Shown here one piece after another: positions 3,910-60,689 of a stretch of DNA of 64,000 nt (its first letter is position 1; the number at the start of each line of letters is the position of its first letter). The position numbers and the translations under genes are program-made. The notes under the pieces are model-generated. The model ran no database searches. It was not told where the DNA came from and worked only from the letters and a program-made list of their open reading frames with translations. This DNA comes from Chiloscyllium plagiosum (Eukaryota). The DNA is taken from NCBI RefSeq assembly GCF_004010195.1, contig NC_057742.1, forward strand, positions 27,420,076 to 27,484,075, in the 5' to 3' direction.

Positions 3910-4640
3910 AATATAGAAGTATGGAAGATAGGAGCAGGAGGAGGCCATTTGGCCCACTCTGCTGTTCATCACAATCATAGCTGATTGTCCAACCCAATAG
4001 CCTAATCCTACTTGCTTCCCATAACCTTTAATCCCATTCATCCCAAGTGCTATATCTAGCTGCCTCTTGAATATTTTGGCATCAATTACTTCCTATAGTA
4101 ATAAATTCCACAGGCTCACCACTCTTTGGGTCAAGAAATGTTTACTATCTCCATCCTAAATGGTCCACCCCAAATCTTCAGACTGTGACCCCTGGTTCTG
4201 GATGCACCCATAATTGGGAACATCCTCCGTGCATCTACACTGTCTAATCCTTTTAGAATTTTATAAGTCTCTATGAGATCCCCCTTTATTTATCTGAACT
4301 CCAGACAAAACATTCCTAACCTGATCAATCTCTCCTCACAGTCAGTCCCACCATCCCTAGAATCAGTCTGGTAAACCTTCGCTCAAGACCAAAAACATCC
4401 TTCCTCAGAAAAGGACACCAAAACTGCACACAATGTTCTCGGTGTCACCTCACCAAGGCCCTGTATAACTGCAACAACACATCCCTGCTCCCGTACTCGA
4501 AACCTCTCACAACAAAAACCAACATACCATTTGCCTTCTTTACCACCTGCTGCACCTACATGCTTACCTTCAGCAACTGGTGCACAAGGACACCCAGGTC
4601 CTACTGCACACTCCCCTCTCCCAATTTACACCCATTCAGG
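3910..4640 (-). mobile_element. CR1 LINE 3' fragment
   Basis: Tail ataggagcaggaggaggccatttggccc plus ORF2 C-terminal blocks (ccaaaactgcacacaatgttc, ctcaccaaggccctgtataactgc). Confidence 0.9.
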
Positions 4641-5585
4641 TATGGCTATGCTAATTGGCTATGCTATATCTAATTTGAATGCGCTCTGAATAATTTATCC
4701 CTTGTGGAAAGTCTTTCACAGTTCATTCCTGATAGGTGGAAAAAGGAAGATATTATCAAAATATGTTAAACATATCTAAGATTCTAAGTATGGAATCTTA
4801 AATAATGTTTCATGGTGGAATTACTTTGAACACTGCCATTTGACAACCAACATAAGCACACAAAGGGTCAAATGTTAAGGTCATTATATTGAAAGTTGCT
4901 TGTCACTTACTTTCTGTCAAGGGATAAGAATTATAATTTACTTTTTATTAAGGATGAGGGGGGATGTTTAACTACTTAGGCTGAAATGCTTTTAGGTCAT
5001 CACTAATATTTCTGTCAAAAACTAAATACTTCCACTTATTTAATAATATAATAGGGACAAAATGCATCAGAACTCTCCAGTGACTAGTGTTACTCACATG
5101 AAATGTATGTAATTTTATAGCTGTTAAGTGATAAAAATGGAGGCAGATCATGCAGTTTTATAATGAATGACATTTTTATATTCAAACTGCTTCAATGTCA
5201 CAGTGCCAGTCTGTTTTTACTCAGATAGCCAATTACACATAGCATAAGTCAGTTACCAAAGAAACACTATATTCATGTATATAAAAACAATTGAAGTCTA
5301 AAATCATTTTGAAAAGGGATAAATTGTGCCGTATGCTGCTAAAGTAACTAATTGGACAACTGTTTTCAACGGTATTTTGCATTTAACAGAGTGGATGTGA
5401 GCTAGCATTTTGCCATTACTGTATTAATAGACTCTGTGATGGATGAAGAAATGAAGACAACCAGATTTATGGGGAAAGAAAATCATAGTGATTCAAAAAT
5501 AAAGGGAGAGTCTTCTTGCCCGAGAAGTGCCAAATGGCAAAAGACTTTGGGCAAACTGCTGTCTTCTTGTTGGAGAGAATATTGA

Positions 5586-14683: not shown

Positions 14684-14780
14684 CTGAAGAAGGGTCCTGC
14701 CTGAAACGTTGACACTCTTGCTCCTCAGATGCTGCCTGACCTGCTGTGCTTTTTCCATTGCCACACTTTATCAACTCAAA
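14684..14780 (+). mobile_element. Short PLE-derived element, family 1, single arm with hammerhead-like core
   Basis: CTGAAGA agggtcctgcct GAAA cgtt, then ctcctcagatgctgcctgacctgctgtgctttttcca. Confidence 0.7.
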
Positions 14781-29862: not shown

Positions 29863-30394
29863 CTTTCTTAATAAGTACCTGGGACCTACATTTTGTCCAC
29901 TTCAAATGAAAGTTACTGGTTCATAAACAGTTTGTGGTGGCCCCCTCCAGGACGGTAACAGCTATTTGCCATAGTTTAATCATTTCCAATATAAGGAGTG
30001 CAGAAGATCAGCGTTGATCAAACAAATCAAAGCAGCAGGATCAATGGATCAATGAAGGATGACGTCCAACATTCATTGGTCCTGGGCAGCAGTGTAAAAC
30101 AAGAGAAAATGAACACTTTTTTTTTATTTCCAGTTCCATCAAGATTTACTTTGTTCCCATCAACAAGACTGAAAGCTGGACAGAGAAATCATGATACGGG
30201 GTCCCAGGAGGAAAGCTATTAACAATAATCATCACAGTTATTTATTCACATTTAAGACTGTTAGAACATGTTCTTTATTTGAAAGAAAAATTATTTAATT
30301 GAATATTTAATTGCAGTGTTGATTGAAGTTCTGGCTCATGAATAATTATGATGACAACCAAAAGTCTTTGGACATATGGATTCACAATGATTGA

Positions 30395-30720
30395 TTAGAG
30401 AATTGATTAGGACTTATACAGTTAATGGTGGGGCCCTGGGGAGTACCAAACAATGGGACCTGAGGGTGCAAGTGCAAAGTTCCTTGAAAGTAGACTCGCG
30501 GGTAGACAGGTTGGTGAGAAGGTATTTAGCACATTGGCTTTTATTGGTCAGAACACTGAGTAAAGGAGTTGAGACATCATGTTGCAGCTGCACATGACAC
30601 TGGTGAGGCCACTTTTAGAATACTGTGTATAATTCTGGTCGCCCTTCAATCGGAAGGATGCTGTTAAACTCGAGAGGCTGCGGGAAAGATTTTTAAGGAT
30701 GATGCTGCAATTGGAAGCTC
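30395..30720 (+). mobile_element. CR1 LINE internal fragment
   Basis: RTYTVNGGALGS...DLRVQVQSSLKV; ctggtgaggccacttttagaatactgtgt. Confidence 0.85.
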
Positions 30721-31469
30721 AATAGGAACATACAAAGGTAAAATACAGTGGGTTGTTCCCAACATTGAAAAAGACCTTGCCAGACTTCATGCAATTTTCC
30801 CACATTTCTCACCATAGCCCATGGCATTCAGCATCCCATAACATTTTGCTCCATCTGTTTAAGTTGGGAAACAGAGACAATGTACAGCTGTAATAGGCTG
30901 AATGTCTTTTACATCTTTGTGACCTGATTGTAATTTAATAATATCAACTCAACCTAGAACATTTTGAAGGGGCTTTTAATGCCTCATGTCCATCCGTCCA
31001 TCGTTATCAATTTTAAAAAGGTTTTATGGAAGGTATCTTGAAACTGCACTCCTTGTTTAAGGGCACCATTCCAGAGTCAGCAATGAGCCACTGTCTTCCC
31101 AGTCTTTAGTTATCATGTTCACACTTGTTTAATCAGCAGACAATTCTTTCTTTTATATATTTAATTAAACTTGACATGGAAATAAATTTAATCATTGTGA
31201 TTTAGGAATTGAGGACAAGCACCAGGAAAGGGCAGAAACCAATGTCTCTCAGAAAATGCCACTTGAACTTTATAACATATCTGTCAGGAACTGTTAGAGG
31301 GAATTGAATACTCACTTCCACAGGTATTCTCTAATCATTAGAAATCCATATGTCCAAAGACATTTGGTTTTCATCATAGTTATTCATGAGCCAGAACTTC
31401 AATAAACACTGCAATTAAATATTCAATTAAATCATTTTTCTTTCAATTAAAGAACATGTTCTAACAGTG

Positions 31470-37064: not shown

Positions 37065-38634
37065 TCTCTCTATGCATAATTGGTCCTTCATTCTACTGTG
37101 TTTGTGGGATTTCCTTGCAGATATTGTACTGTTTTATGTTCTATGTAGGTTAGTCTGATCTTAGAGTAGGAAAAAAGGTCGGCATGAGTTGAAGAGTCTG
37201 TGTTGTGCTGTGCGGTTCTATGTTCTATATTCTATATTGGTTCCACATTTATGTATTTGGTAGGGTCGGTATGGGCTGAATGGCCTACTTCTACACTGTA
37301 AGGATTTTATGATTGTTACTTGCCAATTACCAGCCTAAGCCTGGATATTCAACAGAACAGATATCAGGGTTCCTTTTCAAAGGATTCTACCTTCATAAGG
37401 CAAGGCCGGCAGTAATGCATGGTGTTGTAATTCCAGGCTATACAAAACCAAAGCCTGAAACAGAGGTTCAAAACACAAACTTCTGATTCAGGGGAAGGAA
37501 TGCTACCAACTAAACCAAACTGACATTTTTCATTCCAGTTCCATAATGTAACTTGAAAATAAAACTAAGCATTGAGGGTATCACTCATTTGAAAGTATTC
37601 AAAAATATCACATTCAAGAAAATGAAACCAGTAAACAGTTTTTTGAAAAATGTGGTTTCAATCTGCTGTGTTCTGCTGTTAAACAGTTGCATCTTGAAAT
37701 GTACAGAAAGTAGGGGGTGTTCTGCAATGGCTTAATGAGCATCAGACACAATAATATTCACATTTTGCGTGAAAATGTTAAATTTTATTAAAACATTGGG
37801 GGATGGGGATGGGGATGGGAGGAGGTAAACGTTTCACTCCGTGATCATTGTATGAATTGAATACCATTACATAGACTGACTGATTTACCTTTACATTGGA
37901 TTGAGTGGAAGGGATAGTTGGGCAAGAAATATAAGAAGTTCACTACCACATAGTTTGCAACCAAAGGATCTGCATTTGACCTTCATCATTTCCAGCATTT
38001 TTCTATTTTTATTTATATGTAGCAGTTTCAGCGCATCACACCTCACCCCCCTCATGAGGGAGATTTTAGGGTTTTTACACTTCATAAGGTTTTCATCACA
38101 CACATCCCAGACCCTTTGACCTCCCTTGTTAATAACTTCTTAGTTTAACAAAAACCTATTTAACAATAACAAATGGAAAGGGAATTAATTGCACATTTTA
38201 CCCTACATGTTGCAGTCTCTCAGATTTTACAAATTGTGTGCTTATGTTAAAATTTTCCACGGGGAATATGCTTTGGCAGGAATGAACTTTAAATTGCTGC
38301 TTAAAAAAATATTGTGGATTAAATGAAAACAGAAGAAAGGTCAATCCTGAACCAATGTGAACAATTGAGTTTCTGAGATAATGAGATCTCTTAGATCTAA
38401 TTTAATGGAGGACGTCTGACATTTGTATCATTTTGCTGAATAATATCTATGGACTTTTGATAAAATATTCTTGCACGAACCTATATTTTCTTCCTCATTT
38501 CATTGGTCTTCACCCAAGTAGAAAATAAAACTTCACTTGCTCCATTTCCAAGAAAATGGCTAATGCTTGGGATCTAGATTAACTATATGTCCTGAAGAGC
38601 AACATCAATCTCAGAATGCTGCAATGTTAACAGT

Positions 38635-38860
38635 GGGCCAAAATGAGGACTGCAGATGCTGGAGATCAGAGTCGAGAGTGTGGTGCTGGAAAAGCACAGC
38701 AGGTCAGGCAGTATCCGAGGAGCAGGAGAATCGACATTTTGGGCAAAAGGCCTTTATTAGGAAAAGCCATTCCTGATGAAGGGCATTTGCCTGAATCATC
38801 AATTCTCCTGCTTCTTGGATGTTGCCTGACCTGCTGTGCTTTTCCAGCACCACACTCTCG
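38635..38860. mobile_element. PLE-derived family 1 inverted dimer with hammerhead-like cores
   Basis: Arms meet at ...tttattaggaa aagcca ttcCTGATGAagggc...; flanked by gcaatgttaacagt / gcaatgggaacagt (12/14 direct repeat). Confidence 0.85.
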
Positions 38861-39660
38861 GCAATGGGAACAGTACCAGGCACAGCCAGCTTCCTGATCC
38901 TAAAACCAAAGTCTCAACCTGCACTATGTACCAGAGATATTCCAACTCCAGTGGTTTTGTTCAGGGCATGCTATAAAGGCAGTTTCAATGGGTTTCTCCT
39001 GTCAAGACTTCTCACTGTGAAGAACAATAATCTTCATCCTTCGTGCACCCTTCTGATGTGACAAGGGGGTCACCAACTAGAGTTCAGGACTTGGAATATT
39101 AGCTGACTTTTCTCAGCTGTGAGGTGATTCAGAGATATAATGTAATGGCCTTCACCAGACCATAACATCTATCTGACACAAAGCATGATATAATGAATAG
39201 GATGATAATTGAGTCATTATTATGCCAAAATTATTATTTTAACTTATCTGTAGATATCTCCTCAATTAATTTAAATTAATATAAGCCTTCAGCAGGGAAA
39301 ATAAGATTTGTTTCCTTTTAAAGTTTCTGTATTATGAGGTAACAAAAGAGAATATAACATGTTATAAAATATTTTGTGGCTGGTAACCATATATTTAACT
39401 TTGAATAATAGCTTATTTTGTTCTTGAATGGAAGAGATTGAAAAAAAGATGATGAAGATCTTAAAATTGGAGAATAATAGATATTGATGATGCAAAGTAT
39501 TTAATGGGGAAAGTCGGTGCTTGACTAATAGGTCAAGATATAGGAAATAAGGACTGTTATTACTTTGGGTTGATCAATATAAATGAGTAATTGGAAACCT
39601 TCAACCATGAGGGATGTCCATAAAGAGTTAGAGCAAATCAATGATTGTGTGCTCTACTCA

Positions 39661-40048
39661 TGGTCAAATATCACATGCCACCAGGTTATCATCCAACAGG
39701 TTTATTTGAAATCACAAACTTTTGGAGCATGATTCCTCTGTCAAGTGAAGTGGAGGGAAGTGGACAGGCACAGAATTTATAGATGACGAATTCTTTGAAA
39801 GATAGTTCCAGGTGATCAAGAGTGTCAAAAGATCGTACAAATGGTGTGAATGGAGTGTCAACAAGTGGAATAACAAATCTTTGCAGGTGATTGGAAGTTT
39901 CAAAAGGTGTGAGTAAAGTGTCAACAGTTAAATAGCAAGGAAAGGGATGACCTATGATCTGATTAATTGAAGCAGTGAGATAACTACAAAAAATCAAAAA
40001 TAAGATGGTGCTAGAGACACCACAATCCAACACTGGCACCTCCACATA
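39661..40048. mobile_element. PLE-derived family 2 element
   Basis: ccaggttatcatccaacaggtttatttg start and inverted terminus tccaacactggcacctccacat; TSD ctctactca at 39652-39660 and 40049-40057. Confidence 0.75.
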
Positions 40049-40429
40049 CTCTACTCACAGAGATGGAACAGGTCTTCGTTCAAAACACAAGTGTCAATCA
40101 AGAATCAATAACCCTGGATGTCCTGAAAAGAATGCATCTTTTTATTTTTCTCTATTTTTGATTGTGAACTAAAATAGGAAAGGGACTGTTTTAAAAACCA
40201 AGGATTACAAAAAGGATTAAAGCACTTGTTAACGCAAGTTACCTGACTCATTGCAAGTACTGTTTCTACTGCTGCGTGTGGGGACTGATGAAAGACAAAC
40301 TGAAGCTGGGAATGTATGTAAAGGGACCTTCCACCAGCAACAAGTAGCCAATTGGTTTTTGGAATAGCGACCACTTGTCAATGATAAAGGGCTTCTGTCT
40401 GCCAACAACTAAGTGATTGACTCCCAGGA

Positions 40430-40595
40430 TATTAGATCAGTTGTTAATTTTAAGTCTGAGGCAGATAAACTTTTATTAAGCAAAGGTATTTAGGAATATG
40501 GGCCAAAGGGAGGTACATGGTGTTAGGCCACCGATCCGGTATGACTTCACTGAATGTTGGAATGGGCTCCAAAGGCTGAATGCCCTACTCCTGTT
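40430..40595 (+). mobile_element. Short CR1 3' tail
   Basis: tttaagtctgaggcagataaacttttattaagcaaaggtatttaggaatatggg...gctgaatgccctactcctg. Confidence 0.75.
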
Positions 40596-41390
40596 TGTAA
40601 GTTCCTACCTTCCTCTGTTCAAGATTGCTGAAAGACTTGTGGGTGTGAATAATCAGTCAGAACTCATCGGACCTCCAAGAAGGAAGGAGCGAATCTCACT
40701 GCATTAAAATGGCATCTCACCCCTGAAGAGAGTCAGTTTATGCTTCCTCATCAGTTATTGTGAGCTGTGCCCTGTAACCAATAAGTCAGAGAGACTTTAT
40801 AAATGTGAACCAGTCACTCTATGCCTCCTGCAACAGGTGAAAGTACCTGAAGTAAGAAGATCAAGGAAAACAAACCCTGATGAACCAGAATCAAAACCTT
40901 AGTGAACCTGGGCAAGGGCCTTCCCATTCTTTCCCTCCATTCATGATACCCTTTCTGTATGGCTGTCTTTTTGTTTGTAGGTGGAGTTTTACAAGGCCAT
41001 TAGAGTTTTAACTAGTAGAGTAATATGTTATTAGCTCATAAAATTTTACCTGTAGCTAGAGTCTATTTATTTGTAACAAATAGCAATTCCAGAAGGCTGG
41101 TCTACGCTTTCTGTGATCCTCGGTCTGACATATGGGAAGATCGGTGAAGGCTGCAGATGTTTATAAAATCTTCAACTTTTGTGATGGCTCTGGGAGTAGC
41201 AGGGCTTGATTTGTAGCGTGTTACCCCAGTGAGGCATTGCAGTACATTAGGCGAAATTTTGGAATTGAATGCTATGTCTAGTTTCATTGTTCCAAGTCAA
41301 ATCCCTGACTGCATGGAAAATAGCAGCAATCGGTTCACGTTGAAAGTCTCAAGAGCTACATTCCTCTGCCAAGCCCAGAGTTGTGATAAT
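40596..41390. mobile_element. Possible LTR-like segment
   Basis: Starts tgtaag immediately after the CR1 tail and has LTR-like composition; no clear TSD or 3' terminus. Confidence 0.25.
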
Positions 41391-42099
41391 TAGTAACTCT
41401 GTAATATAACTTCCATCCAAATTGAAGAAAAATAACAATTATTGGCTGTCATACTTTGTACACTTTGGATGGCAATAAACAGTATTTATTGGCATCAGTC
41501 AGCCCAAATGAAAAACATGCTTTCCTGTAAGCCTACATAAAATAGACAGTCAATAAAAACCTTTATTCATCCTTTGTTGTACTGACCGACACCAAGAAAT
41601 CTAAATCAATAAACTGAGTTCATAAAATTGATGTCCTTGCATTAGTCAGATAATGACTGAGGGCATTTTCAAAAACTGCTTTGAGTGATTTTGTTGACTG
41701 CCTTTCTCCTATTTTGAGCTGGTTAAATGCAAATTATTTTACTGCTATGTTAATTGGTATTAGTTCCACCAAATTGATTATACTTGACACTCAGCTTCAC
41801 TTAGCTACATTGATTTGCTGTGTCAAATGATTCAGACAGATGGACTTTCTTTTTAATCGCAACAATAACTCGAATGTGTTACTGATATCATGAGGTTATT
41901 GAATCATGACAACTTGTGAACAGTTTTCCTCTAGTCATGCATGAGGTGCAGCTTAGTTCTGAACAATAGATTAATGGTTTCAGCATTTTGTAATTTTGTA
42001 AAAATGGACTAACCATTTTTTATTTGATTATTTTATGTGTGTTTTTTTAATCCTGGGATCTTTTCATGTTTCACATTTTTTAAAAGGAACAATGCTGAC

Positions 42100-42982
42100 C
42101 ATAATAACATAAGACCATAAGTTATAGGAGCAGAATTAGGCCAATTGGCCCATCAAGTCTACTCTGCCATTCAATCATGACTGATAAATTTCTCCACCAC
42201 ATTCCCATGTCTTCTCGCCGAACCCCTTGATCCCTTTACCAAACATGAACCTACCTATTTCTGTCTTCAATACACTCAATGACTTGTCCTCTTCAGACTT
42301 CTGCAGCAATGAGTTTCACAGATTCAGCACCCTCTGACTGAAGAGATTACTCCTCATCTTAGTTCTCGACTCTAATCTCCAGCATCTGCAGTGCTCACTT
42401 TCGCTTTGTTGTACGACAAGCCCTTCAACCCCAAGATTGTGCTTGTAAACCTCCCCTGGACCACCTTCAATGCCAGCATATCCTTCCTGAGATACAGGGC
42501 TCAAAACTGCTCACCATTTTCCAAATGCAGTCTGACTAGAGCCTTATACAGCCTCAGCAAGACACCGTTACTCTTGTATTCTAGCCCTCTTGAAATTCAT
42601 TCTTACCATTGCATTTGCCTTCTGAACTGCCGACTGAACCTGTGTGTTAACCTTAAAATAATTCAGCAGTAGGACTCGCAAGTCCCTTTGTGCTCCAGAT
42701 TTCCAAAGCCTTGGAAAACAGTCTATGCCTCTACTTTTCCTACCAAAATGGTTAACATCACATTTCTTTGCCAATTCCCTTAGCCTATCCATGGACTTTT
42801 GCAGCCTCCCTGCCTCCTTAGCACAATTTATCCCTCTACCTATCTTTGTATCATCTATAAACTTAGCAACAGTGCCTTTGGTTCCTTCATTCAGGTTAAA
42901 CATTGTGTTCCTTCATTCAGGTTATACATTGTGTTCCCAACATTGACCCCTGTGGAACTCTACTAGTTACTGGCTGCCATCC
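42100..42982 (-). mobile_element. CR1 LINE 3' fragment with an internal deletion
   Basis: AKFIDDTKIG (42568 ORF) and gaccataa tail; a family-1 fragment sits at about 42363-42405. Confidence 0.9.
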
Positions 42983-43343
42983 TGTAACTTAAGATGGCCT
43001 CAGGTTTAGGGCGCTCCAGAAAGGATCATTCAAATTAGACAGGGCTGAAGTCAATTGTCAGCACAGAGCCCAAAGGAGACAACTCAACTGGAATTTGGTC
43101 ATTAGCTATAAAAGAGGACAAGAAGGACCAGAGAAGGTGATAAAAGATAACAATGCTGATCCAGAGCATTAAAGGAGGATCAGAGAAGTTCTCAGACAGA
43201 CCTGAAGACAGTAGGTTTTAACCTTACTTAGTGGAAGAGTCAAAGGGTGGGAAATGTTAGAAGCTGAGCATCCACCAAATGACAATATTTTGCCAGGGAT
43301 AATGGAACAGATTAGGGGAAAACTGATTCTCACTAATATTACA
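42983..43343 (+). mobile_element. Possible short solo LTR
   Basis: TGTAAC...ATTACA termini with internal ctataaaag; no TSD. Confidence 0.3.
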
Positions 43344-43384
43344 AAGTATTAGACTACTAACTGGTCAATACATTCATTGTTCTG

Positions 43385-43551
43385 AGTTAAAAATCACACA
43401 ACACCAGGTTATAGTCCAACAGGTTTAATTGGAAGCAAAAAGAGCGTCGCTCCTTCATGCTAGTGTGCTTCCAATTAAACCTGTTGGACTATAACCTGGT
43501 GTTGTGTGATTTTTAACTTTGTACACCCCAGTCCAACACCGGCATCTCCAG
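43385..43551. mobile_element. PLE-derived family 2 inverted dimer with collapsed centre
   Basis: agttaaaaatcacacaacaccaggttatagtccaacaggtttaattggaagca and its exact reverse complement flank the remnant gagcgtcgctccttcat. Confidence 0.9.
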
Positions 43552-44356
43552 TTCATTCTCCTGGTTATCCTAACTACGTTGAGTAATATGTCTTGGCCAA
43601 GTGTATAGTTTAATCAATTCTCAGAGGTTTCAATTTTTCAATATTGTGGAAAACTTTATTTGGGTTTTATTTATCTCTTATTTCTGTGGTCGTGATCTGG
43701 AGAGGATGTGTGTGATCATCCATTTTTGCAAATGCATAATCTCCAAATCCTCCTGCACTTTGGTAACATTGTTACATTTAATCTGATGAACTGAAGGGAC
43801 TGACCAAGAGCTAGACTTGAACTGATTTCAAATCTTTTTACTGACATTTAGTTTTGGCTATTCTTGTAACTTTAGTGTTTTTACTCCCTTAATTTTTGAT
43901 GGGATTCTAAGAGTTTTAATCAATGAATCAAATCAACGAGCCATTCACAACATTTAAGACTTAAATTATTTTTATAATGTTCAGAAATATACAGAGAAAA
44001 ATGCATAAGACGCATACCCGTAATTGTTGCAGGAGGAAGTTGAATTGAAGTATGGTTTATAAATTAGATTTTCAGGCAGTCCTTGTATTTTTCAAGTCAT
44101 ATTAAAAAGAACAATATCAAATTTGCCTCTTGAATCTTAAAATAGATATTGATTAGAAGCATTATTTCCCTGTTTGTAAAGGGATATGTTGACGATTCTC
44201 AAAGTGATTAGTTGAGATAAACAATAGAAATGTCAAAGACCTGTAACAAAAATAAGAATGGATAGCATTTATTTGAGAAGGTATACTTAACATTTCAACT
44301 GGCAATCCCATATGGGATTGGTTCCTGTTTCGAATGTTTTTGGAATGTGGAAACCC

Positions 44357-44447
44357 GAGCTGAAAAAAGTGTTGCTGGAAAAGCGCAGCAGGTCAGGCAG
44401 CATCCAAGGAGCAGGAGAATCGACGTTTCGGGCATAAGCCCTTCTAG
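44357..44447 (-). mobile_element. PLE-derived family 1 single arm
   Basis: Minus strand gaagggcttatgcccGAAAcgtcgattctcctgctcc; stem II and GAAACGTC intact, CTGATGA truncated. Confidence 0.85.
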
Positions 44448-44919
44448 AACCCTATTCTAGAATTCAGACTTCTTTCTCTTTTTTTAAAATCTAATACTAT
44501 ATTAACATTGGCCACCGTAATTTGAGTCAAATTAATTTAACTCCTTTCTGATCATAATAGGATTAAGTTAGGTAAAAGTCTATCTGAGGATCACTAAGGT
44601 TGCTAAGGAACAGCTGCTGCTTGGTAGCACCTAGCTTTTGGAATTAAATTTCTCTTCGCTTCACGTCTAACTGGGGACAATGCCTTCCTTGGGAGGATTG
44701 GCAGCTCAGACAGTCCCTTTACAATATGGACACCAGATGATAAACAATACAAGTCCATCTGTTGTTGGCATGAGAAGGGATGCTGTCGTTTTTGCAGACG
44801 GTGAAGCTGGCTTCAAGGATTTTATCATGTTTGCACACTGAAGGGGGCTATTCTCTTGGCAACACTTTGTGAAGCTGCTCATCATAAAATACTGACCTAA
44901 CTGCTCAGTAATAACAAGA

Positions 44920-45450
44920 TCATGCTTGAACCAATGTTATATCATGCCTTTAATGTAGCAAAATTTCCCAATGCACTTTAACCAATGCAAAATTTGACAC
45001 TGTGTGCATATAAGATATTAGGACACGCGACTTAAAGCCTTGGTCTAATCGGTACATTTTAAGAAATGGTTTAAAGAAGGCAAGCTAAAGAGACAGAAAC
45101 ATTGAGGAAGGGATTGCAAAGAGCTGAAAACATATAAAGGCAAGCCTGTCAGTAGAGGGGTGAAGGAAATCAGGGATCACTGAGAGGCAGGATTTGGAGA
45201 AGTACAATGATGTTGGAGGGTTGTAGGAATGAAGGAAATTACAGGAGCAAGGAGGGACAGGCCATGGGGGCATTTGAAAAGAAAAATGAGCATTTTAAAA
45301 TTGACTCATTGGTCAATGTAAAGTAATGTGAGTCTTTGGTCTAATGCAATATATTTGAGCAAGCATATGGGTGATAGGTGAATATTACTTAATGCGAGTC
45401 AGCATATGGGCAACATAGCTTTGGCTGAGCTGAAGTCTATAGGAGGTAGA
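44920..45450 (-). mobile_element. Old L2-like LINE 3' end
   Basis: Similar to 22860-23330 (gatattaggacacgcgacttaaagccttggtc...ttttaagaaatggtttaaag). Confidence 0.55.
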
Positions 45451-45489
45451 AGAAAATGAACAATATTAAACTATGGCACTATTGGACAA

Positions 45490-45830
45490 TGGGGTGGTAT
45501 TTTGGCTCAATGGTCAGCATTGCTGCCTCACTGTGCCAGGAACCTGAGTTCAATTCCACCCTCAGGCCACAGTCTGTGTGGAGTTTGCATGTGCTCCCTG
45601 TATTCGTGTCGGTTTCCGCTGGGATCTCGGCTTTCCTCCCTCAATTGAAAGATGCAGGTCTGATGGATTGGCCATGCAATAGTGTCCAGGGATGTGCAGG
45701 CTAGATGTGTTAACCATGGGAAATTTGGGGTTACAGGGAAAGGGGTGGGGGGATGGGTCTGGGTGAGATGTTCTTCAGAGGGTTGGTGTGGACTTGTTGG
45801 GCTGAATGGCCTGTTTCCAGAATTCTATGA
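45490..45830 (+). mobile_element. Decayed HE1-type SINE
   Basis: tggctcaatggtcagcattgctgcctca...gagttcaattcc...gtgtggagtttgcat...ggcctgtttcca. Confidence 0.85.
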
Positions 45831-46104
45831 AATTTCTGTAGTATGTAACAGGCCCATGTGGGTCCAGAAGATCTCTAAATTGGTTGAATATTGAAGCAAT
45901 ACTGAGAAAGGGGACAGATGTTTGAAGGATGATTTTAAAAAATGAAAATATTGAGTATGTTATTTTAAAAGAAAACAAATCTGAACAGCAGCTCAGGCAA
46001 CATAAGCTGTTTCATGATGCTATTATGCACTGGCAACTAAACAATGATCTTTCCACCAACTGGATGCTGCTATCCATCTAACAATATATTCATCGAGCCA
46101 AAGC

Positions 46105-47420
46105 TTGGAAACAAACCCTTCGGACAAACTCAACCATACCAACCAAGTTTCCCAATCTAAACTAGTATCATTTGGCCCATATCCCTCTAAACCTTTCTTA
46201 TTCATGCACATATCCAAATGTCTTTTCAATGCTGTAACTATACTTGCATCCATCACTTCCTCTGGTCGTTCATTCCACACATGAACCACCCCTCTGTGTG
46301 AAAATGTTGCCCCTCAGGTCCCTTTAAAATCTTTTCCCTCTCACTTAAAAATATGGTCCCTAGTTTTGAACTCACCCACCCTAAAGAAAAGACCTTTGCT
46401 ATTCACCTTACCTATGTGTCACTCATGATTTTATAAACTTCATTAGGGTCACCCCTCAACACCTGCTCTCCAGTGAAAGAAGTCCCAGCCTATTCAGCTT
46501 ACCCTTAAAATTAAAACCATTCATTCCCAGCAACATTCTGGTAACTCTTTTCTGAGCCCTGTCCAGTTTGATATCCTTCCTATAGGAGGGCAACCAGAAC
46601 TGTACACAGTAATCCAAAAATGGCCTCACCAATGCTCTGTGCAACTTCAACATGACATCCCAACTCCTATACTCAGTGCTCTGAGCAATGAAAGCAAGTG
46701 TTCTAAACCACCCTGTCTCCCTGTGATGCACCTTTCAAAGAATGATATACCTGAACCCTAGGTCTCTCTGTTCAACAGGACCTTACCGTTCATTGTATAC
46801 GTCCCTGCGCTTGTTTGTTTTACCAAAAGGCAATACCTCACATTTATCCAAATTAAACTCCATTGGCAACTCTTCAGCTCATTGGCTCAATGGATGAGAA
46901 TCCCTTTGTAATCTTAGATGATCTTCTTCACTGTCCACTATGCCATCAATTTTGGTGTCATCTGCAAAGCTACTAATCATACCTCCTAATCTCTCAACCA
47001 AATCATTTATATAAATGACAAATAAAAGTGGACTCGGCACCAATCCCTGCAGGACACTGCTGGTCACAGACCTCCAGTCCAACAAACAATAGACAATAGA
47101 CAATAGGTGCAGGAGTAGGCCATTCAGCCCTTCGAGCCTGCACCGCCATTCAATATGATCATGGCTGATCATTCCTAATCAGTATCCTGTTCCTGCCTTA
47201 TCTCCATAACCCTTGATTCCACTATCTTTGAGAGCTCTATCCAACTCCTTCTTAAATGAATCCAGACTCACCCATCAGCGGAAACATGTTTCCTGCTGCC
47301 AGAGTGTCCAATCCTTTCATAATCTTATACCTCCACCACCACCCTCTTTCCTACCATCAAGACAATTTTGTATCCAATTGGCAAGCTCTCACTGAATCCC
47401 ATGTGATCTATGCCAGTAGG
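46105..47420 (-). mobile_element. CR1 LINE (RT to 3' end) with a younger CR1 tail nested at about 47087-47330
   Basis: SFADDTKIDG, RALVRPFLDYCVQFW, VHVWNERPEEV; the nested copy starts with (caataga)n. Confidence 0.9.
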
Positions 47421-47549
47421 CAACACAGTCATCTTGACTCACACCCTGTGCTGCGGAGAACAGTGTCAGTACCCCCTCACTATGCTTCCTCCCTAAAACC
47501 ACATTCCATTTCACAACTCTATCTTGAATGGCTTCCTGTGCACAGTCAG

Positions 47550-47746
47550 GCAGACAGAAGTGGGAACTGCAGATGCTGCAGATTAGAGCCAAGATTAGAG
47601 TGGTGCTGGAAAAGCACAGTAGGTCAGGCAGCATCTGAGGAGCAGGAAAATCAAGGGCTTTTGCCCGAAATGTCGATGTTTCTGCTCCTCGGATTCTGCC
47701 TGACCTGCTGTGCTTTTCCAGCACCGCTCTAATCTTGACTCCGATC
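47550..47746. mobile_element. PLE-derived family 1 inverted dimer
   Basis: Inverted arms around gggcttttgcccGAAAtgtc; TSD cacagtcag at 47541-47549 and 47747-47755. Confidence 0.85.
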
Positions 47747-47889
47747 CACAGTCAGTTAACTCATCCACCCAGCGACCTTCACTCTCATCAGGATGAGCTG
47801 AAAGAACATCAATCAGTCTCTTTGTCAAGATAAAGGATATGTAAACAAGATAATTTGAGTTTGTAACATGGAAAAAGCTCTTAAGCATA

Positions 47890-48415
47890 AACAGAGAACT
47901 GTGGATGCTGGAGATCTGAAACAAACTAGAAGCACCTGGGGCAGCATGGTGACTCAGTGGTTGGCACTGCTGCCTCACAGCACCAGCGACCCAGGTTCAA
48001 TTCCAACCTCAGGCTCCAGACCGTCTCTGGAGTTTGCGCATTCTCCTCATGTCTGTGTGGGTTTCCTCCCATCACTCAAAGACGTGCAGGTAGGTGAATT
48101 GGCCATGCTAAATTGCACATAGTGCTGCAGAGCTGTGTATGTCAGATGCATTAGTCAAGGGTAAACGTAGGATATGGGAATGGATCTCGGTGGGTTTCTT
48201 GTTGGTGTGGACTTGTTGGGTCAAAGGGCCTGTTTCCACACTGTAGAGATTCTAGTTAATGAAAAAATTGCTGGAGGAAATGCAGCATCTGTGAAGCAAA
48301 AAAAAAGTTAACATTTTGAGTCCGGTGATCCTTCTTGTCCTGAAAAATGTTAGCTCTTAGTTCTCCAGCAATTTCTGTTTTTGTTTATTTCAGATCTCCG
48401 TCATCTACAGTTTTG
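47890..48415. mobile_element. PLE-derived family 3 inverted pair interrupted by an HE1 SINE
   Basis: aactgtggatgctggagatctgaaa at the left; ttcagatctccgtcatctacagtt at the right. Confidence 0.65.
47938..48255 (+). mobile_element. HE1-type SINE
   Basis: A/B boxes gtgactcagtggttgg and aggttcaattcc; tail gggcctgtttccacactgta. Confidence 0.9.
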
Positions 48416-48419
48416 TTTT

Positions 48420-48800
48420 GAAACTCATGAGATGCTACATTCTATCCATTTTCTGACATGAATCAGAAACCTGGACAATAAGTAAAGATCTGGAAGAAAG
48501 TGGAGGCCTTTGAAATATGGATGCTGATACATCTGCACAAAATTCCGGATATACATATCCTGATAATAGATGAAGAGGTATTTGAAATTCCAAAACCAAA
48601 GAACTCTTAAAAAGTGAGATCCAAAAAAGAAAATATTGGTACTTCAGCCATTTGATCAGAGAGCAAACTGGAGGGCAGCAGAAAGGGGAATTGTCCTAGG
48701 CATAGCTGGATGACTGTTATCACAGAATGGGGGTGAACTACATTGATGTGTGAAGAATGTGCAAGGCAGATAAGTGTGGTACACCATGACAGGTGTTCCA
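48420..48800 (+). mobile_element. RTE-clade LINE 3' fragment, decayed
   Basis: ESETWTISKD...KVEAFEIWML resembles the RTE C-terminal motif YGxETW...IEAFEMW. Confidence 0.65.
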
Positions 48801-48893
48801 GTAGGTGTAGCCATAAAAAGCTGCAGTTAGAACTGAAATAAAACAAAGAACTGTGGATGCTAGAAATTTGAAATGAAAAACAGAAATCTATCT

Positions 48894-49175
48894 TGGAGAA
48901 AGTGAGGACTGCAGATGCTGGAGATCAGAGTCGAAACGTGTGGTGCTGGAAAAGCACAGCTGATCAGGCAGCATGCAAGGAGCAGGAGACTCATCGTCTC
49001 AGGCATAAGTCCTTTATCATATTACGTATTTACATAAAACATTATATTACATATAACATTTACATATTAATAAACCGAAACCTGATGAAGGGCTTATGCC
49101 TGAAATGTCGATTCTCCTGCTCCTCAGATGCTGCCTGATCTGCTGTGCTTTTCCAGCACCACACTCTTCTACAGC
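48894..49175. mobile_element. PLE-derived family 1 inverted dimer with AT-rich spacer
   Basis: Right arm cCTGATGAagggcttatgcctGAAAtgtcgattc; TSD aatctatct at 48885-48893 and 49176-49184. Confidence 0.88.
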
Positions 49176-49736
49176 AATCTATCTACCATAAAATTGAGCA
49201 ATGCCTGTGAATAAGTTTCAGTTCCACTGCAATGCCGGTTCCTACATCTTCACAATGGGTGATCAAATCAAACAATATGTTCTTTCTGTTGTTTAAAATA
49301 TGCAGGGCATAGAACATATTCACCTAACCATGGTTGCAAAATCCAACATAGAATGTTGACTATTAGATTTGAGTGCATGATTCAGCAGCACCTGATGAGC
49401 AATCCTGTTTGTCCTAATAGCTAAATAAACAACTAATTTAAGATAATTAATCAAGCCCATAAGAATAGCTCACATACACTTACTGAAGATGAAATACATT
49501 CATACACATATCTATTCTCTGTAATCTATATGATCAAGCCTTGTCAATTTTGCTCAAAAGCTTGGGAAGCCCATAGTCCCCCAATGGTGAGGCATGCCAT
49601 AGAGAAAACAGTCAAAATTGACTTGCCAAATGATCAGCATCTTTCACTCTTATCATGTCTGGTTCACATCTTATTCAATCTGGCATTTTTCTATTTGGTC
49701 TAATTAATGCTTTATGACTCTTTTTTCAGAATTATT

Positions 49737-50282
49737 GTCATGATGTGGAGGAGCCGGTATTAGACTGGGGTGGACAAAGTTAAAAATCACACAACACCAG
49801 GTTACAATCCAACAGGTTTATTTGGAAGCACTAGCTTTCTGAGTGCTGCTCCGTCATCAGGTAGCTGTGAAGCAGGATTATAGGACACAGAATTTATAGC
49901 AAAAGATTACAGTATCACGTAACTGAAATGATATAGTGAACAAACCTAGGTTGCTGTTAACCTCACGTCTTTAATGCATAGTCTGAGTTGAGGTGTCACT
50001 TATTTTTATAAAATCTTAAGTTAACTCGAGAAGGTGACTTAAAAGAAGTTCTGGGATTTACATATTAAGGAATCTACAACCCATTCTAAAAGATGAAGAA
50101 CTTAATAGCAATCTAGGTTTGTTCAATATATCATTCAGTTTCATGACACTGTAATCTTTTGCTATAAATTCTGTGTCTTATGATCCTATTTCACAGTTAC
50201 CTGATTTGGAGTGCAGCACTCCAAAAGCCAGTGGTTCCAAATAAACCTGTTGGGCTATAACCTGGTGTTGTGTGATTTTTAA
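49737..50282. mobile_element. PLE-derived family 2 long inverted dimer
   Basis: Arms about 49780-49955 and 50110-50282; minus-strand CTGATGAcggagcagcactcaGAAAgctagtg; TSD tttcagaattatt at 49724-49736 and 50283-50295. Confidence 0.88.
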
Positions 50283-51691
50283 TTTCAGAATTATTCACAT
50301 TCGGTGCTATCAAGTCACTTTGCATTGCTCCATGGAGATATGCTATGCAATGAGATAGGGTTGATAAAGTTGATTTCGATAATGGTTCCCAAATTAATGA
50401 GCACACAAAGAAAAACTGTAATACTTAGAATCCTAAAAGATATTGCATAAGAACGTGTAGAGAGGAGACTTGTGCAGAAATATAATAAAATAAATTGGAT
50501 AGTTTACATTTTGAATCAAATTGATAACCAAGGTTAATATTGGATTAAACTATTAACGTAACTTACAAATTCTAAAATCCACAAAGACTGTCAGTAATCA
50601 ATTAATTTTGTACAGTCATCAGGATTGTTAAATAGAAAATAGATATTATACAAGAACTGGCAAGCTGCTCTGCTGCCCATTCCACTAAACAGATGATACT
50701 TGAAATTAAAAAAAACAATTGAGGCTTAAATATCATTTTTTGTGAAGGTTCCAATCCTTCTTATTCTAGCCCCTTGAGTACAGTTCCCAACTTACATTCA
50801 TTTGCTTCCATCATTTTTAATGTTGCCCTTTAGCCACCAAATTCCAGCATCTGGAATTTTCTTCTTTAAAGTTCTATCTATGACTTTACATCCAAGACCA
50901 CCCTTAATTTTCCCTCTGATCTAGCTTCAGTTAATTGCTCCTTGCGCATCTTGCTTTATTGCGAGTGTCTTGTTTTCTATGATAAAGGTGCTATGGCAGT
51001 GACTAATGTAGCAAAAATGGGTTTATTAAATTATATTGAAACCAGGCTACTCTGAGTGCAATTAAGTAAATTCCTGTTTGGTGCTGATACTTAAAGACCA
51101 TCAGCAGAAATTAGAAACTTTCTTTGATCTACATTAAATGTATTTCAACTTCAAGCAACATAGGGTGTTATAAATTAGAGACAATTATGGCCTTAAGGAA
51201 CATCAATAAACTGCACAGATGCCGACTCAGTGATCTGTGGAATCATATAGAATCAGTTACATTTTTACACTTTATTAAGTCAAGGCTTATTGTGCCGTTC
51301 ATAATTCAAAGGAAAGGATGTTCTTCCAGTTTTATATTTTTGTTCCAGTTTCATTCTGTCACTAGGTCATATTTTCTTTCAGGGTTCCATGTGAAAATTT
51401 TAATTATTGTGAAGTAGGTCATGAAGTTAGAGCTTGCTAATAACTGGAACAATCTTGATTGTTCTTTATTGAACTGTCTGTTCCATGTGCTCTTTAATCA
51501 TTAAATGCCTTACAGACGCGAAGATGCATTGACTATGTATATACATAGATTTATTATAAAAGAACAGAAGGATCTAAATTCAAGGTTAATTGACCTGGGA
51601 AACATCCCTTCTAATCTGCATGAAATTCAATCATAATCAAAGCTCATGAACGATCAGTCACTTGTGTTAGAATCATTGTTAGATGCATGTT

Positions 51692-58814: not shown

Positions 58815-60213
58815 AAATGTACTCTGGGTGGGGGATATCAATGTCCACCATCAAGAGTGGCTCGGCAGCAGCATTACTGATCAAGCTGGTTGAGTCCTAA
58901 AGGATGTAACTGCTAGACAGGGCCTGCAGAAGGTGATAAGCAAACCAACAAGAGGAAAACACATACTTGACCTCATCCTTACTAACCTGCTGGCTGCAGA
59001 AGCATCTGTCCATGACTGTATCGGTAAAAGTGGCCACCGCACTGTCCTAGTGGAGACAAAGTCCCGCCTTCACATTGAGAATAACCTCCATAGTGTTATT
59101 CACCGTGCTAAATGGGACAGACTTCAAACTGATCTAGCAGCTCAAGACTGGGCTTCCATAAGGCACTAGGTAAAAACAATGACTGCAGGTGCTGGAAACC
59201 AGAGTCTAGATTAGAGTGGTGCTGGAAAAGCACAGCAGTTCAGGCAACATCCGAGGAGCAGTAAAATCGACGTTTCGGGCAAAAGCCATTCATCAGGAAT
59301 ACTTCCATAAGGCGCTGTGGGCCATCAACAGCAGCAGAACTATACTCCAGCACAATCTGTAACCTCATGGCCTGGCATATCCCCCACTCAACCATTACCA
59401 TCAAGCCAGGGGATCAACCCTGGTTCAATGGAGCCAGGGGATCAACCCTGGTTCAAACTGGGCGTCACTGAGCAGGTTGTTGCTGAGCAGGTGCTGCTTG
59501 ATAGCACTTTTGATGCTCTCTTCCATCACTATACTAATGATGCAGAGTAGACTGATTGGGCAGTAATCGGCTGGGTTGGATTTGTCCTGCTTTTTGTGTA
59601 CAGGACATACCTGTAAAATCTTCCAAATTGTCGGATAGATGCCAATGTTGTAACTGTACTGGAAGAGCTTGGCTAGGGGAATGGCAAGTTCTGGAGCACA
59701 AGTCTTCAGTACTATTGCTGGAATGTTATCAGGCCCCATTGCCTTTGCAGTAACCAGTGCCTCCAGCCATTTCTTGATATCACGTGGAGTGAACCCAGTT
59801 GGCTGGAGACTGGTATCTGTGAAGCTGGGGACCACTGGAGGAGCCTGAGATGGATCATCCACTCGGCACTTCCGACTAAAGATTGTTGCAAATGCATCAG
59901 CCTTACCTTTTGCACTGATGTGCTGGGCTCCTCCATCATTGAGGATGGGGATACTTGTAGAGCCTCCTCCTCCAATGAGTTGTTTAATTGTCCACCACCA
60001 TTCACGACTGGGTGTAGAAGGACTGCAGAGCTTAGATCTGATCTGTTGGCTGTGGGATCGCTTAGCTCTGTCTATCACTTGCTGTTTATGCTGTTTGGCA
60101 CACAAGTAGGTGCTGTTCCAGCAATAAAGTTTCAGCTTGGCACACAAGTAGTCATGTTTGGTAGCTTCACCACATTGACACATTATTTTTAGGTATGCCT
60201 GATGCTGCTCCTG
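58815..60213. mobile_element. Rearranged LINE family B: endonuclease part on + (58815-59456), downstream part inverted (59457-60213)
   Basis: + strand WVGDINVHHQEW...PTRGKHILDLILTN...SGHRTV (APE); - strand ORF 59425-60183 AMGPDNIPAIVLKTCAPEL...YCPISLL...SDAQF. Confidence 0.9.
59168..59301 (-). mobile_element. 134-bp family 1 monomer with hammerhead core, inserted in the LINE
   Basis: Minus strand starts tattcCTGATGAatggcttttgcccGAAAcgtcgat; TSD cttccataaggc(a/g)ct at 59153-59167 and 59302-59316. Confidence 0.9.
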
Positions 60214-60689
60214 TTTCTAGTGTGATAGAGGAAAACAACTTGTAGTCTTAAAGGAAGAAATTTGTTTTAAACAATATGGAGTTTATTGAGTTCTGAAGAA
60301 GGGTCACTGAACCCAAAACATTAAATTCTGCTTACTCTCCACTGATGGTGCTGCTTTTTCAACAATTTCTGTTTTTGTTTGTAGTTCATTGCATGATAAG
60401 AACTATATACAAGTTGCACTTTTGTGTCAGATGTTGTGACAGAGACTATGAGGAAGACCAGGAGCAGCATCAGGCATACCTACTCCAATGACGGCTTGGC
60501 AGAGAAAGGCTTAGGATCTCTAGGAAGTAAGTCCTACAAACTGAATCTTCCTCATCAGTGGAGAGTAAGCAGAATTTAATGTTTTGGGTTCAGTGACCCT
60601 TCTTCAGAACTCAATAAACTCCACATTGTTTAAAACAAATTTCTTCCTTTAAGACTACAAGTTGTTTTCCTCTATCACACTAGAAACAG
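60211..60689. repeat. 137-bp inverted duplication (60211-60347 vs 60553-60689)
   Basis: Direct comparison shows one mismatch; includes a family 3 core ctgaagaagggtcactgaacccaaaacatt. Confidence 0.95.

Follow-up and report, generated by a model that had tools for sequence, protein, structure and literature searches.

Mirror repeats of the shark Chiloscyllium plagiosum as paired, 5′-truncated Penelope-like ends, probably primed on each side of a single DNA break

Six elements in the window

The window, a 64,000-nucleotide stretch of the Chiloscyllium plagiosum genome, contains six short elements of two repeat families between positions 38621 and 50295. These mirror repeats are real, yet ordinary for this genome, and their density is unremarkable (four TSD-confirmed dimers, with 3.4 expected per 64 kb). 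In a search for a host gene, 150 of the 222 non-repeat frames of at least 50 aa were compared with Pfam and gave three weak matches, all below the cut-off.

Four palindromes lie where the initial annotation had placed them (38635–38860, 47550–47746, 48894–49175 and 49737–50282), and each is flanked by a TSD as it had reported, except that the aatctatct given at 48894 is too short. At the first, the left TSD (38621–38634, + strand; right copy 38861–38874, 12 of 14 matching) is followed by a tailed family-1 arm on the − strand (38635–38765; approximately −3 to +125, where +1 is the C of CUGANGA) with a mutated core, and by a tailless arm on the + strand (38766–38860; −5 to +88) with a mutated core GAAA. 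The second has the left TSD cacagtcag (47541–47549, +; right copy 47747–47755, 9 of 9 matching, or 13 of 16 if extended by eye), a tailed family-1 arm (47550–47652, −) that ends internally at +30 and lacks the hammerhead core, and a tailless arm (47651–47741, +) that ends at +4, 26 nt further 5′. At the third, a left TSD (48880–48893, +; right copy 49171–49184, 13 of 14 matching) precedes a tailed family-1 arm (48894–49019, −; inner end +2), a junction insert (49020–49084, +) and a tailless arm (49081–49170, +; inner end −1) with a near-intact minimal hammerhead core at 49082–49105. Within the insert, 26 of 27 positions of 49058–49084 match family-2 upstream sequence (score 49, where the highest among 2000 shuffles was 31), and the junction of this piece with the family-1 arm is a 4-nt overlap. 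Arms of the family-1 palindromes in the window are 77–97 nt long and 82–89% identical; a junction only a few bases from the core, as claimed, is present at 38635 and 48894 but not at 47550.

The palindrome at 49737–50282, which consists of three arm pairs, is a family-2 element with an exact 13-of-13 TSD (tttcagaattatt; 49724–49736, +, and 50283–50295). Its tailed arm (49737–49960, −) runs from −100 to +122 and its tailless arm (49958–50282, +) from −252 to approximately +82, so that the latter carries 152 nt absent from its partner; the two overlap by 3 nt at the join. A second family-2 element, 39661–40048, indeed has the annotated TSD ctctactca (39652–39660, +; right copy 40049–40057, 9 of 9 matching) but is not a palindrome, its longest helix being 7 bp. 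It comprises a long tailless arm of a diverged subfamily (39661–39880, −; 3′ end +82, inner end uncertain), homologous over about 200 nt to another copy, and a tail stub of about 30 nt (40018–40047, +) that has no sequence in common with that arm. The third, 43385–43551, pairs a tailless arm (43385–43437, −; +31 to +83) with a tailed one (43465–43551, +; +30 to about +120) across a 27-nt spacer that holds a further core fragment. It had been described as lacking a clear TSD; none lies above threshold, although a candidate decayed 12-mer is present (43373–43384/43552–43563, 10 of 12 matching).

Relationship to Penelope-like retrotransposons

As judged from sequence, the repeats are 5′-truncated 3′ ends of two Penelope-like (RT plus GIY-YIG) retrotransposon families. 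Family-1 ends run upstream into a GIY-YIG frame; a 462-aa frame continuous with arm sequence contains RT motifs, a CxxC linker and GIY-YIG, and matches the Pfam GIY-YIG model at E 7e-4 and 20.3 bits, under the cut-off of 22.6. Family 2, as read by eye, leads into remnants of RT and a YIGETK-type endonuclease that is frameshifted; an 88-aa piece of this family had no Pfam match. A PDB search gave no match, and the protein homologues found were three unnamed shark proteins. In both families a C-x4-C-x2-C linker, of a type common to Neptune and Nematis, lies between RT and endonuclease (EN). At 30 of 30 loci selected for a tail/body junction the tail runs into a common body, in many cases followed by another pLTR piece. 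The apparent ORF of family 1 starts at about +160, with the RT start sites just before it. Intact copies of full length were not recovered; long candidates fall in assembly gaps, and five of eight long-frame candidates are such gaps or broken. The features of EN+ PLEs that were found are RT followed by a C-terminal GIY-YIG, a pLTR leading into the ORF start, an inverted truncated copy with a one-sided tail, and a hammerhead motif.

This motif, CUGANGA-stem II-GAAAC.GUC, is present in every family-1 subfamily consensus, and a related core in family 2, in each case as a sequence motif only. An Rfam scan found no hammerhead, returning only miRNA-hairpin look-alikes below cut-offs. Most window copies have mutated cores; within 38621–50295 only 49082–49105 passes a core-pattern scan, the others being mutated or truncated. 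The initial annotation did not identify the repeats as Penelope-like element ends. In a third hammerhead family, cross-hits confounded the tail test.

Short non-coding repeats with type I hammerheads are also characteristic of retrozymes, according to the available parts of two reports (PMC7229834, PMC6155905), but retrozymes are described there as direct tandem repeats that spread via circular RNA, whereas the shark repeats lie in inverted orientation and run directly into coding sequence for RT and endonuclease. With close pairs numbering 49 head-to-head and 4 tandem, a retrozyme was excluded.

In themselves, the shark elements are common and belong to a known class of repeats, with a layout already published for PLEs. 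EN+ PLE insertions with an inverted pLTR, tail and TSD are known from Adineta vaga (Pen2a_Av and others; PMC3846280) and from D. virilis Penelope (PMC2377424), and a general scheme has been given (PMC8557442). As in these, the shark units have a head-to-head inverted 5′-truncated copy, a 30–40 bp tail at one end, one TSD, a hammerhead in the pLTR, and a pLTR/tail that adjoins the ORF start. Unlike them, the shark units are mostly ORF-less stubs of 100–550 bp at very high copy number, their TSDs are 12–15 bp rather than 8–10 bp, and the tail asymmetry can be counted over 62 insertions. Their value is that so many natural insertions can be brought to bear on a question posed in PMC8557442, namely how inverted pLTRs and a tail at only one end arise in PLEs.

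Pairing of arms and position of their ends

Dimers were surveyed in 1.16 Mb of unselected genome and taken as TSD-confirmed at a score of at least 8; a score of 8 arose by chance in 0.66% of 2861 cross-block arm pairs of family 1 and 0.47% of 1895 of family 2. All 46 confirmed family-1 dimers pair a tailed with a tailless arm (43 of 43 at a score of at least 9, 34 of 34 at 12 or above), for which P is 1e-14 given that 50% of the family-1 arm pool is tailed. The same holds for 16 of 16 confirmed family-2 dimers, two of which are one segmental duplication, and not one of the 62 confirmed dimers of both families is tailed on both arms. Exceptions occur among close pairs without a TSD (4 of 13 in family 1 are tailless on both arms, 1 of 8 in family 2 tailed on both) and at L204, L220 and L205/L206 among 30 loci selected for the ORF start; 90 of 201 arms belong to no confirmed dimer or confirmed monomer.

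The two arms differ in their outer ends, which fall at fixed sites separated by about 35 nt: the tail site at +122 to +126 and the tailless site at +83 to +90. Because each end type also occurs alone with a TSD (10 tailless and 9 tailed single arms), both are real start sites. TSDs are 12–15 bp long, with a mode of 14–15 bp, and have an AT content of 66% relative to a background of 59%. A MITE or other DNA transposon was excluded, as the tail makes the ends asymmetric, the centres are variable and the TSD mode is 14–15 bp.

Inner ends of family-1 arms were compared with the predicted ribozyme cut at +28/+29, which is derived from the motif. Whereas 48 of 172 inner ends fall in two bins just upstream of CUGANGA, only 3 lie at +26 to +32, and in 91 young-subfamily arms the stop rate per base was 8.0% at −9 to 0, 0.4% at +26 to +32 and 0.6% at +33 to +60. 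This count was limited to family 1 because the family-2 reference diverges upstream, making its inner ends at −2 unreliable. Junctions are thus non-random with respect to the core, as the initial annotation had anticipated, but they cluster where the hammerhead begins on its 5′ side, some 30 nt beyond the predicted cut, and not at the cleavage site, if that is what it had meant by a ribozyme-defined RNA end. Because the pile-up lies upstream of the core, the RNA template was likely uncleaved by the ribozyme. Joining of the arms at an RNA end produced by hammerhead self-cleavage is accordingly very improbable: the clustering near the ribozyme and the motif's minimal type I layout, of the kind given for PLEs in the available part of PMC4209133, are in its favour, but the stop rate at the predicted cut does not exceed background and most arms retain the whole core, which sits 5′ of that cut. 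The reading of the hot spot as a splice acceptor, by analogy with helix I in D. virilis, was rejected, the subfamily consensuses having no AG at −4.

Within a dimer the two arms share source-specific variants: common non-consensus bases amount to 1.9% within dimers versus 0.7% in permutations (0 of 5000 as high), and in 5 of 46 dimers the arms fall in different subfamily groups. Conversion between the arms, or the use of two RNAs from a single source locus, could also give such common variants. Among 29 compact dimers, the arm reaching further 5′ by more than 5 nt is the tailless one in 12 and the tailed one in 8, with 9 falling within 5 nt; for differences of at least 25 nt the numbers are 7 and 3. 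Inspected by eye, one of the 12 dimers with a longer tailless arm (B05 17497) resembles the product of an internal deletion. Beyond the common hot spot, the inner ends of one dimer are uncorrelated (Spearman 0.15, P 0.41), and they lie within 6 nt of each other in 9 of 31 dimers, where 7.1 are expected. Overlaps occur at 14 of 31 junctions (raw count), and a templated origin was significant for 2 of 6 junction inserts of at least 6 nt, one being merely diverged upstream element sequence.

Origin of the paired arms

Integration in one event, as the initial annotation inferred, is supported by the single TSD around both arms, by the orientation of close family-1 pairs (49 head-to-head, 1 tail-to-tail) and by an empty site. 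At a young family-1 dimer outside the window (L068:4597–4818), contigs from runs X12 and X15 (one species) and X18 (another) join L068:4582 directly to 4819, lacking 236 bp that equal the element plus one 14-bp TSD; these related species thus have one TSD copy and no arms, and a one-armed orthologue was absent from the three runs of two species at this one locus. Two independent insertions, the second targeted beside the first, are therefore hardly credible. PLE endonucleases can cut their own pLTR, according to the available part of PMC11167929, and nested and tandem copies do occur, but a second insertion would not account for one TSD around both arms, the lack of doubly tailed dimers, or variants common to both arms.

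That only one arm bears a tail likely reflects copying that started on each side of a single DNA break and not fold-back. We propose, with a probability of roughly 70%, that a single insertion gave rise to each element, bringing in two short, 5′-truncated copies of the hammerhead-bearing PLE end through a staggered cut and priming from both 3′ ends. The GIY-YIG domain would leave 3′ overhangs of 12–15 nt; synthesis from one would begin at the tail site and from its counterpart at the tailless site, with a single uncleaved RNA probably serving as template for the two. Each cDNA would stop early, often at a likely RNA end near −4, where transcription may start or the 5′ end may be protected, and the cDNA ends would be joined via 1–4 nt overlaps or short re-copied inserts and then filled in. 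The palindrome would thus be a by-product, not copied as a unit. That the known pair of RT start sites is divided by one ribonucleoprotein between both ends of a single staggered cut, on one uncleaved RNA, is an extension that we only slightly favour. Twin priming is here read from end products.

Fold-back or self-priming is an unlikely alternative. In this scheme one cDNA, or an antisense RNA, would fold on itself and be copied outward, and the endonuclease would cut the second arm back to the tail boundary. Self-priming on an antisense template has been hypothesised (PMC3846280), as has a tail arising from EN-mediated resolution (PMC8557442), and such a process would account for one tail per insertion, for common variants and for the 9 of 29 centres that are within 5 nt of symmetric. 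A fold-back copy, however, cannot contain sequence absent from its template, and each arm often carries element sequence missing from its partner, as in the 7 of 29 dimers noted above, in the long tailless arm at 49737–50282 and in the non-overlapping arms at 39661–40048. The zero-loop centre of the L068 dimer and the existence of tailless monomers with TSDs also argue against the fold-back that had initially been suggested. Later central deletion could nevertheless make a tailless arm seem longer after fold-back, and the near-symmetric centres count against twin priming. Amplification as a unit, with a MITE-like or SINE-like non-autonomous palindrome as master, is largely refuted: family-1 dimers number about 1.4e5 per genome by rough extrapolation, many of 200–230 bp, but their centres vary among copies, arm lengths grade continuously between 30 nt and more than 600 nt, and sub-subfamily variants match inside each dimer.

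In L1 elements the internal site at which the second primer anneals varies, and the resulting inversions do not overlap. In the shark families the second start site is instead fixed about 35 nt from the first, and the arms therefore overlap and form a palindrome. Twin priming itself was described for L1 (Ostertag and Kazazian 2001): as summarised in PMC2246262, the two 3′ ends at the break each serve as a primer on the element RNA, and the resulting cDNAs meet mid-way. Closer still is Poseidon of Anolis carolinensis, whose protein, in the in vitro work covered by the available part of PMC11167929, nicks and extends both strands, with RT starting at two internal sites that bound the tail and ribozyme cleavage being unnecessary. 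The shark families resemble Poseidon in these two start sites and in their AT-rich targets, but differ in their CxxC-type linker, which is Neptune/Nematis-like according to PMC8557442, and in family-1 start sites located just before the apparent ORF start. The same part of the anole report describes no coupling of start sites within one insertion and finds no strand difference in start site, so that one site per strand is not shown by it. The strict pairing of tailed and tailless arms provides a sharp prediction for that in vitro system.

If transcribed, such a hairpin would trap the ribozyme sequence, and the approximately 2e5 inverted units per genome (a rough extrapolation) could supply much double-stranded RNA in shark transcripts. 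In the window, the long hairpins initially proposed are predicted for five of the six elements and not for the sixth.

Identity, abundance and insertion of the dimers

The four palindromes and their target-site duplications (TSDs) described in the initial annotation (38635-38860, 47550-47746, 48894-49175 and 49737-50282) were all found in the window at the level of sequence, with TSDs longer than annotated for the 48894 element (13/14 matching) and the 47550 element (13/16 by eye). At 39661-40048 the proposed TSD is present but the hairpin is not, the element consisting of one long arm and a stub of 30 nt, and 43385-43551, described as having no clear TSD, has at best a decayed 12-mer around 43385-43556. 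A search of Rfam reported no hammerhead; the minimal core was recognized by pattern, and within 38621-50295 it is near intact only at 49082-49105.

The arms of both families are high-copy repeats. Some family-1 arms continue more than 600 nt upstream into a GIY-YIG frame, which in longer copies is a 462-aa RT-linker-GIY-YIG frame, while 3′ of the tail (defined below) a shared body starts with an apparent ORF start. Family-2 arms likewise run into a GIY-YIG-type endonuclease, there frameshifted. The closest protein matches of the element's endonuclease are shark proteins (58-82% identity). To judge from these continuations, the arms of both families are the pLTR ends of endonuclease-bearing Penelope-like elements (PLEs), possibly Neptune-like ones. 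An unselected sample of 24 blocks of 50 kb, picked regardless of content (1,159,050 non-N bases), extrapolates over the 3.56-Gb genome to ~1.4e5 family-1 and ~5e4 family-2 dimers. The dimers are genuine and abundant and belong to a kind already known; because 3.4 are expected per 64 kb, the window is ordinary.

That each palindrome integrated in one event was borne out at the one locus covered by the empty-site check, which lies outside the window's own loci: L068:4597-4818, a young family-1 dimer with both arms identical to the consensus. Its flanks are joined directly in contigs from two runs of one related species and one run of another, where the site is shorter by 236 bp, i.e. by the element and one 14-bp TSD copy. 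A low-depth contig, from a run with a label like those of the runs that best match the locus, probably represents an empty allele too, as read from depth columns only. Two related species lack this dimer, which is probably polymorphic in its own species, so family 1 has been recently active. The youngest family-1 subfamily, 1.1% from consensus, includes this copy (G000 C11).

Pairing of tailed and tailless arms

With element coordinates numbered from the C of CUGANGA, the 3′ ends of family-1 arms are bimodal, lying near +90 (tailless) and +126 (tailed). After 7 of 218 arms were removed as a look-alike family, 201 remained outside the window, half of them tailed. Divergent family-1 pairs at most 6 kb apart numbered 103, the window's own included, and a dimer was taken as confirmed by a common TSD at a score of at least 8 (null rate 0.66%). 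By this measure 46 pairs outside the window were confirmed, and all 46 joined a tailed to a tailless arm (P 1e-14; 43/43 at score 9), with TSD lengths peaking at 14-15. The 19 monomers with a TSD comprised 10 tailless and 9 tailed arms; 90 of the 201 arms fell in no confirmed dimer or monomer, some of them adjoining assembly gaps. Among 46 close family-1 pairs, 13 had no TSD, and 4 of these 13 were tailless plus tailless. In family 2 the same pairing held in 16/16 confirmed dimers (two being one segmental duplication), and one of eight close pairs without a TSD was tailed plus tailed. All six window elements obey the rule, as do the outer ends of most complex units among 30 loci chosen for an ORF start, the exceptions being L204, L220 and L205/L206. 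The window also holds a tailed family-1 monomer at 59152-59315 (TSD 12-15 bp, 5′ end at -6) and further single arms at 14684-14777, 42364-42406 and 44348-44445.

Inner ends, template RNA and fold-back

If the ribozyme-defined RNA end of the initial annotation means the cleavage site, the idea that the arms meet there is wrong or unsupported. Of 201 family-1 arms, 21 abut gaps and 8 reach the reference end; among the 172 counted, the two 5-nt bins immediately upstream of the core hold 48 ends, against 3 at +26 to +32, around the predicted cut after +28. For three young subfamilies whose upstream references are good (91 arms), stops per base occurred at a rate of 8.0% at -9 to 0, 2.5% at +1 to +12, 0.4% at the predicted cut and 0.6% further 3′. 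The cDNAs therefore crossed the scissile bond, and the template RNA was likely uncleaved. Because monomers pile up likewise (10/19 end between -11 and +3), the pile-up is independent of arm-arm pairing. Only 4 of 30 copies spanning the ORF start extend past -5; we infer, as an unproven reading, that the 5′ end of many template RNAs lies near -4, either because transcription begins there or because the RNA is protected from that point. In D. virilis, PMC2377424 and PMC4209133 place the transcription start further upstream.

Fold-back, the other element of the initial proposal and the rival of the twin-priming reading, has to begin from the tailed cDNA, and the tailless arm should therefore lie inside the tailed arm. 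Instead, the tailless arm often holds sequence beyond it: of 29 compact dimers, 12 have a tailless arm that outreaches the tailed one by over 5 nt, 8 show the reverse and 9 are near-symmetric, and for differences of at least 25 nt the counts were 7 and 3. In the window, the tailless arm exceeds the tailed arm by 152 nt in the 49737 element and by 26 nt in the 47550 element, and the two arms of the 39661 element do not overlap. A secondary central deletion remains a way to reconcile longer tailless arms with fold-back, and 1 of those 12 dimers shows what by eye resembles an internal deletion; as it stands, fold-back is wrong or unsupported. In 41 of the 46 dimers, those with both arms in one subfamily group, non-consensus bases common to both arms made up 1.9% of 2721 non-CpG sites, compared with 0.7% on permutation within subfamily (observed level reached in 0/5000), which fits a single template RNA, a common source locus or conversion between the arms. 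The inner ends of the two arms are otherwise uncorrelated within a dimer.

An inverted pLTR, a 31-bp tail and a TSD are described in PMC3846280, which also remarks on junctions that are head-to-head and puts forward self-priming as their origin. PMC8557442 gives the same scheme and explains the tail by endonuclease resolution, while treating the mechanism as an open question. PMC11167929 reports nicking and extension on both strands from two start sites, one at each boundary of the tail, with cleavage not required; its supplements may bear on start-site pairing. PMC7229834 and PMC6155905 concern retrozymes, and PMC2246262 summarizes L1 twin priming. The literature covered, with few subscription papers and without Repbase, held no statement of PLE twin priming, strict PLE tail pairing or these shark families, a weak negative. 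The present counts give sharper form to a mechanism of PLE integration that can be tested.

Probable template jumps and other inverted repeats

The junction of the 48894 element contains 27 nt of family-2 sequence, and many of the selected ORF-start loci show a jump from the 5′ end of an arm back into the body; together these point to template jumping after run-off. Mini-tandems recur at loci L201-L230: ahead of a short arm stands a body piece that starts at +183 to +263, and these starts cluster at +189 to +201, which suggests a preferred re-entry site for such jumps. In a long family-1 copy at L070, near 4540-4950, the endonuclease part is immediately preceded by an RT fragment in inverted orientation, resembling the 5′ inversions of L1.

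At 47878-48431 two copies of a third hammerhead family, older than the others, face each other in inverted orientation and are split by a SINE-like insert; both arms look tailed by eye, the family-wide tail test being confounded. Inverted arms of 136 nt (93%), 940 nt apart at 30257-31468, surround LINE-like pieces and have no other match within the window. The very young inverted duplication at 60190-60689 (137-nt arms, 99%) takes in ~80 nt of flanking host DNA and part of a third hammerhead repeat, and has in its middle an exact 24-nt inverted copy of its left flank (60190-60213 versus 60459-60482); it looks like replication template switching rather than PLE twin priming. A similar event is seen at L101:528-646, a palindrome of two short family-1 arms in which at least 25 nt of flanking DNA is also inverted.
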